A stretch of DNA of 38,596 nt, taken from assembly GCA_043813075.1 (NCBI GenBank), contig JBDRLL010000031.1, forward strand, positions 1-38,596, read 5' to 3'. The notes below the pieces were generated by a model that did not search any database, was not told the DNA's origin, and saw nothing but the letters and a program-made list of their open reading frames with translations. Shown piece after piece: positions 32,334 through 36,746 of the stretch; position 1 is the stretch's first letter; every line of letters begins with the position of its first letter. The position numbers were made by a program, and so were the translations under genes. This DNA is from Candidatus Altiarchaeota archaeon (lineage in GTDB: Archaea; Altiarchaeota; Altiarchaeia; IMC4; SCGC-AAA252-I15).

Positions 32334-33857
32334 TCACTTCCTCATTATCCGGTTCACGCCGTTGATGAACGCTATCACGCTGGCCATAACCACGTCCTCG
32401 TGGACTCCCCTGGCCATGGTGCTTTCACCGTTCTTGCTGACCCTGATGGAAACGTCCGCGAGAGCGTCACTGCCGCCGGTGATTGCGTCCAGGTGATACT
32501 CTTCCAGCCTTATGTCCGCCCCAATCGCAGATCGGATTGCCTTCAGGGTTGCGTCTACCGGACCCACACCCTCCTCACTCGCAGCCTGCTCCCTCCCCCT
32601 GACTAGCATCTTTACTGATGCTATGGGATTCTTGCCGAGCTCCGCGTGAAGGGTCAAATCCTTCAGCTCCACGGTCCTCTCCTTCTTGGATACTTTACCC
32701 AAAAGGTCTTCCGCTATGGCAGCCAAGTCCTCCTCAGTCACCTTCTTGCCCTTGTCCGCAAGATCCTTCACTTTACGGGTGATGTCTTCAGCCTGCTTTT
32801 CACTAACCCTGATGCCCATGCCATCCAACTTGTCCCTGATCCCGTGCTTGCCTACGTGTTTACCCAACACCAGCCGCCTCTTGGCTCCGACAGTCTCAGG
32901 CTTGATAGCCTCGTATGTGGATGCCTTCGAGAGCACTCCGTGAACGTGGACTCCTGACTCATGGGCGAACGCGTTGCCGCCGACTATCGGGAAGTTAGGC
33001 ATCACTTTCACGCCAGTCAGCCGCTCAACCATCCTGCTGGTCTCCCATATCCTCTTGGACTTCACGTTGGTCTCTATCCCGTGGATCAGCTTGCACGCCA
33101 TCACAACCTGCTCTAGGTCCGCGTTACCCGCGCGCTCGCCCAGACCATTGACTGTGACGTGCGGTATGCTGGCTCCAGCCAGGACTGCGCTGACAGTGTT
33201 GGCGACAGCCATCCCGAAGTCGTTGTGGCAGTGGACTGCCAGCGGAGTCTTCACATCCTCCCGTAGCTCTGAAATCAGCCATCCCATGGCCGCCGGCGTC
33301 ATAACCCCGACCGTATCCGGGATGTTGATGTGCTCGACCTTCATGGCGTCCGCCATGCCGACCACCTGCTTCAGGTAGTCCAGCTCTGTCCTGCACGCGT
33401 CCTCGGGGCTGAAGTGAACCTTGAATCCCCGCTCCTTAACGTACTGTATGCAGTCTTCCGCACGACCCATTATCTCTTTCCTGCTCATCTTGAGCTTGTA
33501 CTTCCTGTGTATGGGTGAGGTTCCGATGAACAGGTGGACCATGTCAACTCCAGCATCCATCGCAGCATCCATGTCCTTCTCAACACACCTGGATAAACCA
33601 ACTATACGACTCTTCAGGCCCATCTCCTTTATCTCCTTGACCGCATGGAACTCGCCTTCACTGGAGACGGGGAAGCCGGCCTCGATGTAGTCGACTCCCA
33701 GCTGGGATAGGGCTGAGGCTATCTCCTTCTTCTCACCCACCGTCAGCGTGATTCCCGGCGTCTGCTCTCCGTCCCGGAGTGTCGTGTCGAATACCCTGAT
33801 TTTTTCCGCCTTCTTTTTAGGCTCAACCTTCTTGTCGTACCAGAATTGGTCCATCAT
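32334..33857 (-). CDS. leuA: 2-isopropylmalate synthase
   Basis: FDTTLRDGEQ, IEAGFP, HCHNDFG, NGLGERAGN, AHESGVH and the C-terminal regulatory domain (GVGPVDA, AITGGSDA). HLFIGTS and INIPDTVG fit LeuA better than CimA. SD GGAGG at 33867-33863. Confidence 0.9.
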   Translation of the reverse strand: MMDQFWYDKKVEPKKKAEKIRVFDTTLRDGEQTPGITLTVGEKKEIASALSQLGVDYIEAGFPVSSEGEFHAVKEIKEMGLKSRIVGLSRCVEKDMDAAMDAGVDMVHLFIGTSPIHRKYKLKMSRKEIMGRAEDCIQYVKERGFKVHFSPEDACRTELDYLKQVVGMADAMKVEHINIPDTVGVMTPAAMGWLISELREDVKTPLAVHCHNDFGMAVANTVSAVLAGASIPHVTVNGLGERAGNADLEQVVMACKLIHGIETNVKSKRIWETSRMVERLTGVKVMPNFPIVGGNAFAHESGVHVHGVLSKASTYEAIKPETVGAKRRLVLGKHVGKHGIRDKLDGMGIRVSEKQAEDITRKVKDLADKGKKVTEEDLAAIAEDLLGKVSKKERTVELKDLTLHAELGKNPIASVKMLVRGREQAASEEGVGPVDATLKAIRSAIGADIRLEEYHLDAITGGSDALADVSIRVSKNGESTMARGVHEDVVMASVIAFINGVNRIMRK

Positions 33858-33934
33858 GCAATCCTCCAATATTTTTTAGAGTTGTAACTAAACATTTTTG
33901 TGTTTCACAGCGGAGCCATAGACTGTATGATAGC

Positions 33935-34036
33935 CTATGCCCGCAGCCGTAGCAATAAAAGCAAGCGCAGTACAGGGTTCCCGCTAAAGTAGTCCTCGTT
34001 GATTACCACCGTAGGGTATATGTAGGAACCATCCAT
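33935..34036 (-). CDS. Leucine-rich leader peptide (leuL-like uORF), 33 aa
   Basis: MDGSYIYPTVVINEDYFSGNPVLRLLLLLRLRA. Codons 23-31 read CTG CGC TTG CTT TTA TTG CTA CGG CTG. ATG is 26 nt after TATA-like TTTTTAAG; the ORF ends 77 nt before leuA. Confidence 0.75.
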   Translation of the reverse strand: MDGSYIYPTVVINEDYFSGNPVLRLLLLLRLRA

Positions 34037-34091
34037 TGTTGATATAAACTAAGGGATACTACTTAAAAAATCAAATTCCGGGGTTTTAAGC

Positions 34092-34823
34092 CTACCAGGG
34101 CAGTAATTTCCGGAGTATCGCCCACCCGGTTATCTTGCTGGGAATCAATGCGGTGACTCCACCGCTAGTATCGCATAATCCGGTCACACCCTGAGTCTGG
34201 CAGAGACAGCATAAGTCATCCACACTGCCGTCATCACAGTTAGCTGGCGTGTCACCGAAGTAGTCACATGAATTAGCATTACAATAACTCTGGCATGCTG
34301 AGGATGAGTCACCGCCATACGTCGAAGCGCTTACGCAAACGGTTAGAGGAGACTTGACTCCGCCAACCTCAACATTAGAGCAGCTGACCCTGTTCCTAGA
34401 CTTGCATGCCTTGTGCTTCACGCAGTCAGGGTCGTCACAGTCTATCTTGCCATCGCAGTCGTCGTCCTTCCTGTTGGTGCAACCCCTCCTGACGTTCTCA
34501 CTCTTGCTGGAGAGCCTCTGGATGCAGTCCGCGTCCCGGCAGTCAGTGTAGCCGTCACAGTCGTTGTCGATGCCGTCCTTACAGCTCCGGCGCTTCCCCA
34601 ATTCGAAACCCTCCATGCGTTTCTTGCACTGGGGGTCGCTGCAGTCGGTGTAGCCGTCGCCGTCATTATCCTTACCGTCCCGGCACATCATTGGAGTGTT
34701 CTCGTTCTTGCATAACGGGTAGCATCCCTTCGGCCTCCTGGCGGCGGCAGAGTCGATTAGGAATACGGTGAGAACTGCGAATACGATTAAGGCCAGTAGT
34801 ATGGTCCTCTTTAGTGAAGCCAT
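34092..34823 (-). CDS. Secreted Cys/Asp-repeat protein
   Basis: Signal peptide and three C.(D/N)G.D(N/D)D.DG..DC.D.DC repeats (putative Ca/metal-binding), then a Cys-rich tail. Confidence 0.85.
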   Translation of the reverse strand: MASLKRTILLALIVFAVLTVFLIDSAAARRPKGCYPLCKNENTPMMCRDGKDNDGDGYTDCSDPQCKKRMEGFELGKRRSCKDGIDNDCDGYTDCRDADCIQRLSSKSENVRRGCTNRKDDDCDGKIDCDDPDCVKHKACKSRNRVSCSNVEVGGVKSPLTVCVSASTYGGDSSSACQSYCNANSCDYFGDTPANCDDGSVDDLCCLCQTQGVTGLCDTSGGVTALIPSKITGWAILRKLLPW

Positions 34824-34859
34824 TAGAGAAATATGGGAGGGGGATATTAAAAAACCCCT

Positions 34860-36746
34860 TTATTCACCGAGCTTTTCGGGCATCACGTACTCGCCGTGTT
34901 TCTCGCCAGACTCCTGAAGCCTCTCCCTCTGCTCGCTGAGGGAAGTGAAGAATGTTTCAGGCATGCCAGGCACCTTACGGTAGACTGCTTCTATACGGTC
35001 TATCTTAGCCAGGTTCTCGCCGACACGTATCTTGAACTGCTGTGAATAATCCTCCTTTGGATAGTCCTTCCCGAGCACCTGCTTGAAGAGCTTCTTCAAG
35101 TCATCGTACTTGGGTATGAATCCTGTCGGCGCCTTCAAAGCGCCCACTTCCCCGTGGACCCGCAACTCCATCCACTTGAGCCACACCCGCTTGTCGTCTA
35201 TGCTGGTGAGGAAGTTCTTGGATGCGTCACCATCCTCCCTGATGAAGTAGTTCACTGAGAATATAAGGGGCTCTTTACTGGCAGACTCGACAATCTTCAA
35301 GTCATCCTTAATGTAGTCCGCGAGCGGTATGGATAGGAAGTCTATGTTGGACATCGGGTTGAAAACCCTCTGACCCGTCTTCCCTATGGTCGCGAACGTC
35401 GTCTCAGACTCCAGTGAAGCAGCGATAGTAGTTATCCCGTGCGTCCAGTCGAAAGCCTGCTGGATTGGGACTGAAGTGTCAGAATCCCTGCCCCCGTATA
35501 TGACACCCCCAAGAGGGACTCCACCAGAGTCGTCAGCCATCGGATCCTTGTTCCTGAGCGTGCTTATCTCGATGGTGTAACGTGCGTTAGGGTGTGATAT
35601 TGGAGCCGGCTTTCCTTCAGCATCCTTCTTGCTGGGACTCCATTCGCCGTCATAATTCAACCCGCCTTCAGGAGCAGGCCTGCCGTCGCCACCCCACCTC
35701 GCGTTCCCACTCGAGTCCATGAGGACGTTGGAGAATATGACTTCCCCGGGGGATGTGAGTGCCTTGAATATCTCCGGGTCGCCCTTGTCGTTGACACCCC
35801 CGATGATGCCGAACATGCCCTTCTCCACGTTAGCAGCCCTGACTTCACCGTCAATAACCCTCAGGTAGGCTATGTCGTCGCCCACAATCGTCTCGCCCTT
35901 TACCATGGCCGTCGACGTCTTACCGCACGCGCTCGGATAGGCTCCCGCAAAGTAGGTGACCCGGCCTTCTGGTCCGTGGACGCCCATTATGAACATGTGC
36001 TCGCAAAGCCAGTTACCGTCACTGTGAGCCCTCGCTATGGCGAGCCGCATGGCATGCTTCTTGAAGCCCAGGCTGTTGCCGCCGTACTGGTTGTTGACGC
36101 TGTATACTGTCTCAACGTTAGGGTCCACGTCCATGTAGATCCTACGCTTGTCCAGGTTCTTGGTGACGCCGTTCTCCAGCTCGCCCTGACTGTGGACGAA
36201 CTTGAAGAACCGGTTCTTGTCCTTAAGCCTCTTGAACTCCCCGTAACCCTGCCTGAAGAGCATTATCTCGTTATGCGCGACGTAAGACGAGTCAGACAAC
36301 TGGACTGCCGGCACCGAAAACACGCTGTTGTTCGGACCCAGACAACCGAATATGACGAACATCTCCCTGCCAGCCATGATGCCCTTCATTATCGCGTGTA
36401 CTTCTTCCGTCGCCTCCTTCTGGCCTAGAGTACGTATGGACTCGCTCAACTCCACACCCTTCGGGACCAGCACGGCAGTATCGCCCTTAGCCCTCGCCTG
36501 GTCTTTCGCACTGTCGAAGTGGAGTGTGTGACCCAGAGTCGATAACTTGCGTTCCTCACCATCCTCAATGGCCTTGTCGCGGACGTACTGTAAGTCCTTT
36601 TTAGAACCATCGCAGACGAAAACCTTGCTTGGAGTGCAGTGCAAGACATACTTCAATATAAAATCGTTTAAAGCAGGATTATCCAACGCACTTATCTTAT
36701 CGTACTGGTCGCCCAGCTTCTCCTTGAGTAATACTGTGTCGGCCAT
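34860..36746 (-). CDS. pckG: Phosphoenolpyruvate carboxykinase (GTP)
   Basis: DQAR, YGGNSLG.KK, WLCEHM, YPSACGKT, VGDDIA, HPNARY, YGGRD, NPMSN. Start MADT after SD GGGGTGA. Confidence 0.95.
   Translation of the reverse strand: MADTVLLKEKLGDQYDKISALDNPALNDFILKYVLHCTPSKVFVCDGSKKDLQYVRDKAIEDGEERKLSTLGHTLHFDSAKDQARAKGDTAVLVPKGVELSESIRTLGQKEATEEVHAIMKGIMAGREMFVIFGCLGPNNSVFSVPAVQLSDSSYVAHNEIMLFRQGYGEFKRLKDKNRFFKFVHSQGELENGVTKNLDKRRIYMDVDPNVETVYSVNNQYGGNSLGFKKHAMRLAIARAHSDGNWLCEHMFIMGVHGPEGRVTYFAGAYPSACGKTSTAMVKGETIVGDDIAYLRVIDGEVRAANVEKGMFGIIGGVNDKGDPEIFKALTSPGEVIFSNVLMDSSGNARWGGDGRPAPEGGLNYDGEWSPSKKDAEGKPAPISHPNARYTIEISTLRNKDPMADDSGGVPLGGVIYGGRDSDTSVPIQQAFDWTHGITTIAASLESETTFATIGKTGQRVFNPMSNIDFLSIPLADYIKDDLKIVESASKEPLIFSVNYFIREDGDASKNFLTSIDDKRVWLKWMELRVHGEVGALKAPTGFIPKYDDLKKLFKQVLGKDYPKEDYSQQFKIRVGENLAKIDRIEAVYRKVPGMPETFFTSLSEQRERLQESGEKHGEYVMPEKLGE

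Follow-up and report, generated by a model that had tools for sequence, protein, structure and literature searches.

We analysed a stretch of 38,596 nt from an uncultured Altiarchaeota archaeon (contig JBDRLL010000031.1; the whole stretch is hereafter the window) and focused on the spacer ahead of leuA, the gene for 2-isopropylmalate synthase. This spacer carries an upstream open reading frame (uORF) that is very probably a genuine leaderless leucine leader peptide, which would sense Leu-tRNA through stalling of the ribosome; from the comparative sequence analysis below, we put the probability at about 0.8. The element is a conserved device of four parts: a leaderless start, a 5'-proximal hairpin (P1), a stretch of exposed Leu codons, and, around the stop codon, a second hairpin (P2) that the ribosome must melt. 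That the whole is best explained as a cis-acting sensor of Leu-tRNA charging ahead of leuA in Altiarchaeota is likely, at a slightly lower confidence, and any particular output step is doubtful. In our judgement, no better candidate for an amino-acid switch sensed by ribosomes has yet emerged in Archaea. The features of the element and its target gene are listed below in the direction of transcription.

34062-34069, minus strand: TATA box TTTTTAAG of the leader promoter, starting 33 nt ahead of the uORF ATG; kept in relatives
33935-34036, minus strand: leader open reading frame (ORF), 33 codons plus stop, MDGSYIYPTVVINEDYFSGNPVLRLLLLLRLRA; from translation
33976-34030, minus strand: hairpin P1, stem GGUUCCU (34030-34024) with GGGAACC (33982-33976), variable interior; from folding
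33944-33970, minus strand: Leu codon cluster L-R-L-L-L-L-L-R-L, a U-rich single strand that separates P1 from P2; from folds and codons
33910-33944, minus strand: hairpin P2, 5' arm 33944-33932 with the stop codon TAG, 3' arm 33924-33910; from RNAalifold and covariation
33868-33909, minus strand: A/U-rich spacer from P2 to the leuA Shine-Dalgarno (SD) sequence, without conserved structure; from the alignment
33863-33867, minus strand: SD sequence GGAGG of leuA, 5 nt ahead of its ATG; read from the sequence
32334-33857, minus strand: leuA, 2-isopropylmalate synthase (507 aa); from matches to NF002085 and NF002086

Coding signature of the leader

The initial annotation had placed a 33-codon ORF ahead of leuA at 34036-33935, and translation confirmed it. 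The encoded peptide ends in LRLLLLLRLRA, followed by the stop codon TAG at 33937-33935. The Leu content described there was also borne out by the sequence: Leu occupies 7 of the 9 codons from L23 to L31 (33970-33944), five of them in a row at 33964-33950, and the codons used are, in order, CTG, TTG, CTT, TTA, TTG, CTA and CTG (five kinds). The Val-Val-Ile run reported earlier in the peptide corresponds to V10-V11-I12.

We compared this ORF within a working set of 22 leaders, which includes four new metagenome variants. The leader ORFs are 29-40 codons long, start with ATG in 21 cases and with GTG in one, and all of them carry 5-9 Leu among the last 13 sense codons. In 20 leaders, 63-117 nt separate the uORF stop from the leuA start; in the other two the gap is 175 nt, and the uORF and leuA always share a strand. 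A comparison of the regions upstream of related leuA genes had been proposed as a check, and in these regions the ORF and its Leu run are conserved and the codons vary synonymously. In particular, the 158 Leu codons of the set comprise 51 TTG, 49 CTG, 31 CTT, 16 TTA, 9 CTA and 2 CTC, and the invariant columns of the Leu run in the alignment are the second-position T of four successive codons. The TTN codons were 67 TTR versus 1 TTY (binomial 2e-12, for kin that are not independent and under a null in which third positions after TT are assumed to behave as after CT). The Leu frame was free of stops in 21 of the 22 leaders, while stops were present in frame 1 in 20 leaders and in frame 2 in all 22.

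Besides the constraint on codons, we detected one on bases. CTC was avoided in the leaders (2 of 158) compared with its share of 21% among the Leu codons of this genome, and since CTC and CTT are read by one shared tRNA, this avoidance is a constraint at the level of bases. It keeps the Leu tract, which is 50% U, U-rich and unpaired.

We also scanned 608 small intergenic ORFs with a downstream gene in this genome. Two of them had 6 identical residues within a 7-codon window, and one of these two was the leader uORF, which ranked first of the 608. A check of the other operons of this genome for cognate-codon leaders had been proposed, and this crude scan gave no second one among the 608 ORFs. 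An exact look-up of three leader peptides in a collection of 15 billion proteins returned no entry.

As a side observation, the second Arg of the RLR tail, at the penultimate sense codon, is encoded by CGA in 13 of the 22 leaders (hand count), and CGA is the rarest Arg codon of the genome (2.7%). The window copy has CGG at this place, and the preference for CGA may only reflect pairing within P2.

Conservation across Altiarchaeota

We searched 41 related genomes for LeuA and obtained a match in 39, mostly as two paralogues (57-82% and 42-49% identity). When the 450 nt ahead of the closer paralogue were translated, an ORF ending in a Leu run was present in 16 of the 28 loci with enough upstream sequence. 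We then searched the 49 genomes of the order with a covariance model (R1) that covers the leader's 3' part; 18 of them gave a single match each, every time beside the leuA orthologue. By family, matches were found in 14 of 20 genomes of f1, 2 of 2 of f3, 1 of 1 of f4 and 0 of 22 of f5, and in none of the single genomes of f2, f6 and f7. Within f1, the element was present in 15 of the 16 genomes that have both a leuA orthologue and upstream sequence. The f1 genomes without an R1 match were four in which only the paralogue was found (G006, G009, G012 and G017), one whose contig ends 11 nt before leuA, and G007, where the element is decayed. A search of 61 genomes of the class with R1 gave no further strong match and four weak ones at E 0.005-0.0095.

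As an unbiased control, 80 metagenome loci were fetched by LeuA similarity. The nine best loci (L070-L078) all had a Leu-rich uORF, eight of the leader type and one divergent and f2-like. Among the other 71 loci, an ORF with 5 Leu within 7 codons occurred in three, and no such ORF was leader-like. We also scanned species genomes with a pattern of the leader and obtained 17 matches, 8 archaeal and 9 bacterial. Seven of the eight archaeal matches were identical in peptide to known leaders, and the eighth, L066, had not been recovered in the leader scan. The nine bacterial matches, four of them with short Leu-rich tails, are about the number expected by chance according to a rough estimate of the information in the pattern. 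Chance as an explanation of the element is excluded by this comparative evidence, and the sequences indicate a lineage-specific conserved leucine leader in families f1, f3 and f4, and perhaps in f2 too.

Regarding f2, we observed in L016 (f2) and in the metagenome locus L077 a 44-codon ORF located ~180-225 nt before leuA and ending in SLLLRLRLKL(R/M)ALLK-stop, without an R1 match. Its codons (TTA TTG CTT CGG TTG CGG) resemble those of the f1 leader, and it is followed by ~200 nt of very AT-rich sequence with T5 to T10 runs and TATA-like boxes. This ORF could represent a leader that has diverged and possesses genuine oligo-T terminators.

Probable leaderless promoter

A TATA-like octamer begins 30-38 nt ahead of the start codon in all 22 leaders, which upheld the claim of a TATA box at leaderless distance; the box itself had to be reassigned, as the conserved one is TTTTTAAG (34069-34062) and not the nearer TTTATATC (34050-34043) chosen in the initial annotation. 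Among the 853 ATG genes of this genome without an SD-like motif, TATA-like hexamers show a peak at -36 to -28; among the 284 with such a motif they lie farther upstream, both according to crude gene calls. The TATA distance of the uORF matches the peak of the SD-less genes, so the uORF has the geometry of the leaderless genes of this organism. The leuA gene itself has an SD sequence (at least 4 matching nt, 5-11 nt ahead of the start) in 16 of 18 genomes, and since only 284 of the 1137 ATG genes of the genome carry an SD-like motif, leuA is probably carried on a leadered transcript.

More generally, 853 of the 1137 crudely called ATG-start genes lack an SD-like motif and show a TATA-like peak ~30 nt ahead of the ATG, and most mRNAs of the organism are probably leaderless by this measure.

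Hairpins flanking the Leu codons

Neither P1 nor P2 had been seen in the initial annotation, and the hairpins belong to the element no less than the Leu run does. The statement made there that no hairpin with a U-run follows the ORF fails in its hairpin part, as the stop codon is enclosed by P2 and the ORF itself contains P1; its U-run part stood, and so did the remark that there is no terminator of the bacterial type, as no T-run is conserved.

The closing helix of P1 was recovered in the single-sequence minimum free energy (MFE) folds of 17 of 18 leaders. In f1 and f4 its sequence is mostly conserved with few compensations, and in f1 its 5' arm occurs in two registers relative to a conserved ACGGTT motif. 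Both f3 leaders have an 8-bp helix at the place of P1 despite an unrelated sequence and peptide. P1 explains much of the apparent conservation of the peptide (GS, SGNP).

P2 begins three codons ahead of the stop and holds the stop codon within its 5' arm. RNAalifold predicted 13 pairs, 8 of them with compensatory changes. Over 23 sequences aligned to the model, 92.0% of the cells were paired compared with 80.0% after shuffling, and none of 500 shuffles reached the observed value, in an alignment that was fitted to the model and so favours P2; 11 of the 13 pairs had changed on both sides. Slid controls, in which the partner was shifted by 1-3 columns, were 30-50% paired. The stop codon itself covaries with its partner (TAG with CTA, TAA with TTA, TGA with TCA), and in the metagenome variant L076 the pairing is GGCGGAC with GUCCGCC.

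Between P1 and P2, a single strand of 22-34 nt (hand count), about one ribosome footprint, carries the Leu codons, and the Leu run was unpaired in the folds of the individual sequences.

Proposed mechanism and output

We propose that the uORF is translated and that ribosomes stall on it; the sign of the response and the whole output step described here are likewise proposals. Transcription would begin at the uORF ATG or a few bases from it and yield a leaderless mRNA. P1 starts 3-15 nt past the ATG, so it must be open for a ribosome to load at the 5' end, and loading would be possible only before P1 folds, i.e. during RNA synthesis. The pioneer ribosome would then enter the single-stranded, U-rich tract of 22-34 nt with its 5-9 Leu codons of several kinds, and because these codons are read by several isoacceptors, the leader would sense overall leucine charging. 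With plentiful Leu-tRNA, the ribosome would continue, melt P2 and terminate at the stop codon in its 5' arm. With scarce Leu-tRNA, it would park on the Leu tract, leaving P1 open, the tract covered and P2 folded. The two positions of the ribosome would result in low or high expression of leuA.

For the output, we tentatively prefer, by elimination, a step at the co-transcriptional or decay level over bacterial hairpin-plus-U termination and over masking of the leuA ribosome-binding site (RBS). In the replete state, the U-specific nuclease and termination factor FttA/aCPSF1, or another RNase, would gain entry at the U-rich tract left exposed or at the 3' half of P2, likewise U-rich, once it is unfolded, and a parked ribosome would deny them access to the leader. 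One point toward an output at the RNA level is that P1 should confine translation of the leader to a pioneer round. U-rich nascent RNA is bound and cut by FttA/aCPSF1, for which a role as the counterpart to Rho in Archaea, policing the coupling of transcription and translation, has been proposed (PMC11616081, from the accessible part of the article); archaeal termination dependent on this factor is also treated in the accessible parts of PMC8716108 and PMC7515710. The known determinant of such termination is a single strand of U-rich sequence in the nascent RNA. The Leu tract is 50% U, and the factor is encoded in the genome (orthologue at 906.9 bits, cut-off 580.2). The link between FttA and the leader is conjectural. 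A handover of this kind would be analogous to Rho-dependent attenuation at tna. It is possible, if rather doubtful, that the element is the first archaeal amino-acid-sensing leader peptide with a non-bacterial output, in which the place where the pioneer ribosome stops decides the handover to FttA/aCPSF1 or to a U-specific RNase. If true, this would be a regulated and translation-coupled use of the archaeal termination or decay machinery, with eukaryote-like parts.

Several observations weigh against the leader and the mechanism proposed for it. Three relatives have decayed Leu runs: L007 (LRLLRLLRL), L011 (LRLYLFL, with P1 lost) and L014 (18 bits only). In the metagenome locus L078, the stop codon (TGA) comes four codons early, just before P2, and P2 is kept by compensatory changes (GCAAGAG with CUCUUGC). 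Since that stop precedes a retained P2, a stop codon inside the hairpin is not obligatory. Between P2 and leuA, RNAalifold gave P2 as the sole consensus structure and no further conserved helix in the spacer, i.e. no conserved structure for an off state. There is also no conserved T-run after P2 among the leaders, and the T4 runs of some spacers are at no fixed place. Finally, a handover to FttA has a problem of timing, as the polymerase would be uncoupled in both states, once the ribosome has left or stalled, and a step that tells the states apart, such as a pause near P2, must be assumed.

Bacterial-type or oligo-T termination after P2 was tried and rejected, as the T-run is not conserved and a pattern scan of the window for sigma-70 promoters and terminators was no better than shuffles (10 sites compared with 10.6 expected).

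Alternative explanations

The strongest of the other explanations, which we consider unlikely, is a translational attenuator like that of ermC or the mycobacterial poly-Cys short ORFs, in which P2 would serve as anti-sequestor. On reaching the stop codon, a ribosome would free the 3' arm of P2 (CUCGC plus flank) to pair with the SD sequence or start of leuA, and a stalled ribosome would leave P2 folded and the RBS free. The 3' arm and its flank do hold CUC or CCUC, generically complementary to GAGG; with a ribosome on the stop, the MFE fold pairs the 3' arm with the SD/start region in about half of the 22 leaders (by eye), and in the window the loop and 3' arm of P2 pair with this region at -21.7 kcal/mol. 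For the SD sequence of L005, L006, L019 and L075, the fraction predicted to be unpaired rises from 0.01-0.16 (terminating) to 0.40-0.65 (stalled), and the nearest worked example, the leaderless poly-Cys sORFs of mycobacteria, uses RBS sequestration according to the accessible part of the source (10.1101/834739). Across the leaders, however, the effect is not general. The mean unpaired probability of the leuA initiation region was 0.41 both without a ribosome and with one on the stop, and 0.39-0.42 when the ribosome was stalled (18 leaders), and the SD core was more open in the stalled state in 7 of the 22 leaders and less open in 8 (Wilcoxon p 0.87). Cognate pairs of 3' arm and initiation region scored -10.04 compared with -9.20 for non-cognate pairs (p 0.065), and -12.13 compared with -12.06 (p 0.45) over 20 leaders with two near-duplicates dropped, in permutation tests that have little power if both partners are invariant. 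L003 and L022, moreover, have palindromic inserts of ~100 nt between P2 and leuA. The option of a translational output raised in the initial annotation, read as SD masking, thus found no general support in four tests, and we rejected masking of the SD sequence or start codon as a general output after finding no general effect in the three ribosome states, the SD-core accessibility or the duplex tests.

It is quite improbable that the element is an untranslated structured cis-regulatory RNA, with P1, the U-rich linker and P2 forming a site for a protein or ligand (riboswitch-like or for a leucine-responsive protein) and the reading frame a by-product. Two covarying helices do flank a conserved single strand, much of the peptide conservation (GS, SGNP, RLRE) falls in helix arms, and the authors of the actinobacterial LEU element favoured a protein-binding RNA over attenuation in the accessible part of their article (PMC1262725). 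The linker is nevertheless constrained as codons, with an invariant T at position 2, a pyrimidine (Y) at position 1, and a position 3 that is free but does not give Phe (67 to 1). The start codon lies at the leaderless TATA distance in 22/22 leaders, length differences preserve the frame, 21/22 leaders lack stops in the Leu frame compared with 2/22 and 0/22 in the other frames, and no Rfam family matched at E up to 10. Least probable of all, and hardly credible, is an independent gene for a small hydrophobic micro-protein, or a chance ORF, unrelated to leuA. Small ORFs are common (608 small intergenic ones in this genome), but the element is found as a single copy per genome, in every case 63-175 nt ahead of leuA and on its strand, and gave no R1 match in the four f1 genomes with only the paralogue. 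Between f1/f4 and f3 the peptide is unrelated over its N-terminal two thirds, yet the helices and the Leu run are kept, and 5-8 Leu in a row are not enough for a membrane helix.

Relation to known leader systems

Leader-peptide attenuation is a textbook bacterial mechanism that needs coupled transcription and translation. Archaea also couple the two processes, with a polymerase, ribosome and termination factor that are eukaryote-like. The enterobacterial leu leader, leuL, is the Rfam family Leu_leader (RF00512), and in E. coli it has four mostly rare CUA Leu codons. As in leuL, trpL, hisL, pheL and thrL, the Altiarchaeota element has a short co-oriented ORF directly upstream of the first committed gene of the pathway. 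It shares with leuL-type attenuators a run of cognate codons near the 3' end of the ORF, a stop in or next to a hairpin arm, and the presumed logic that the position of the ribosome reads charged tRNA. It differs from leuL in its archaeal host, its leaderless start without an SD sequence before the leader, and its 5-9 Leu codons of up to five kinds per leader. Two hallmarks of classical attenuators were found, namely a co-oriented upstream ORF and a run of end-product codons that is kept as codons. The third, mutually exclusive antiterminator and terminator hairpins with a U-run, was absent: the element has no terminator hairpin with a U-run and no detectable antiterminator alternative. An Rfam scan of positions 33000-35000 of the window at E up to 10 gave only chance matches (mir-975 and a flavivirus repeat, E at least 2).

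Two further bacterial systems can be compared with the element, as far as the accessible parts of their descriptions go. In the mycobacterial poly-Cys short ORFs (sORFs), a stalled ribosome blocks a duplex that sequesters the downstream RBS (Canestrari et al., 10.1101/834739). These share with the Altiarchaeota element a leaderless short ORF, a cognate codon tract, a biosynthetic gene with its own SD sequence and the lack of an intrinsic terminator (10.1101/834739). Unlike them, our element shows no general SD masking and has two covarying hairpins that flank the tract, with the stop inside one. The actinobacterial LEU element forms a pseudoknot, with a base stem in which Leu codons pair with the SD sequence of leuA, and the authors who described it were doubtful that translation plays a role (Seliverstov et al. 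2005, PMC1262725). It likewise has a candidate leader ORF with a Leu run before leuA, no obvious terminator and a conserved RNA structure (PMC1262725). In contrast to it, the Leu codons of the Altiarchaeota leaders vary synonymously and are unpaired in the folds, and blocking them leaves the predicted accessibility of the SD sequence unchanged.

In the main texts of the open-access articles of PubMed Central and bioRxiv, we found no archaeal leader-peptide attenuator, including with explicit phrases such as "attenuation in archaea", and no regulated use of FttA under the control of a leader peptide. The element is well delimited (~130 nt) and available in 22 natural variants, with covariation marking the bases that matter. 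It could be moved into a tractable archaeon to ask whether archaeal ribosomes report the supply of amino acids to the transcription or decay machinery, and through which factor. It also supports naming the paralogue downstream of the leader as the true LeuA of these uncultured organisms.

Locus and genome context

The genome assembly (G000) has 1.8 Mb in 41 contigs and is 89% complete. In this assembly, too incomplete for conclusions on the tRNA-Leu repertoire, aragorn detected 14 tRNAs, or 21 with introns allowed, and a single tRNA-Leu (UAG). The contig encodes ribosomal protein S8e, which identifies it as archaeal, together with a GTP-type phosphoenolpyruvate (PEP) carboxykinase, an H+-pyrophosphatase and a KaiC-like ATPase.

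The identity of the downstream gene as leuA, already given in the initial annotation, was corroborated by its product passing the cut-offs of both the NCBIfam subfamily model NF002085 (669.4 bits, cut-off 517) and the equivalog NF002086 for 2-isopropylmalate synthase (536.1 bits, cut-off 532). The LeuA paralogue on contig C29 falls under the equivalog cut-off (494.5 compared with 532), and no Leu-run ORF was present in its upstream sequence as read. A convergent TPR gene comes after leuA, which therefore stands alone. On the other side, the leader uORF sits in a 234-nt gap between leuA and the gene for an acidic secreted protein:

34092-34823, minus strand: gene for an acidic double-disulfide-repeat secreted protein; from NF033662

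The order on the minus strand is S8e (37136-36780), PEP carboxykinase (36764-34860), double-disulfide-repeat protein (34823-34092), leader and leuA. In family f5, leuA comes directly after the S8e gene, which leaves no space for a leader. From this comparison, the S8e-leuA neighbourhood looks ancestral, and the leader looks to be located in a spacer that f5 is without.

Some leaders have additional features between P2 and leuA. The inserts of L003 and L022 are long inverted repeats that look like small mobile elements, and they follow an SD-like GGGAGG at the usual place of the leuA SD sequence. In the window, a second small ORF, MFSYNSKKYWRIA (33895-33854, minus strand), runs over the SD sequence of leuA, and its TGA overlaps the leuA ATGATG. 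Such a second uORF starts ~7-14 nt past P2 in 6 of the 22 leaders (L001, L002, L003, L009, L072 and L019), and in L003 it stays open for 47 codons through the inserted segment. It may be a lineage-specific layer of control or a product of chance. A second uORF with ATF4-like logic was rejected as a general mechanism because only 6/22 leaders have it and because the ATGA overlap is automatic when leuA begins with ATGA.

Finally, the second of the two ORFs with 6 identical residues in 7 codons, MSPFWGTKFFFFFLFP (contig C33, 47350-47400, plus strand), is a CCCCC-TTTT-GGGGG hairpin with a T-rich run that reads as Phe. It is a bacterial-looking terminator in an archaeal genome, and the N-terminus of the next gene product resembles diphthine synthase by eye.

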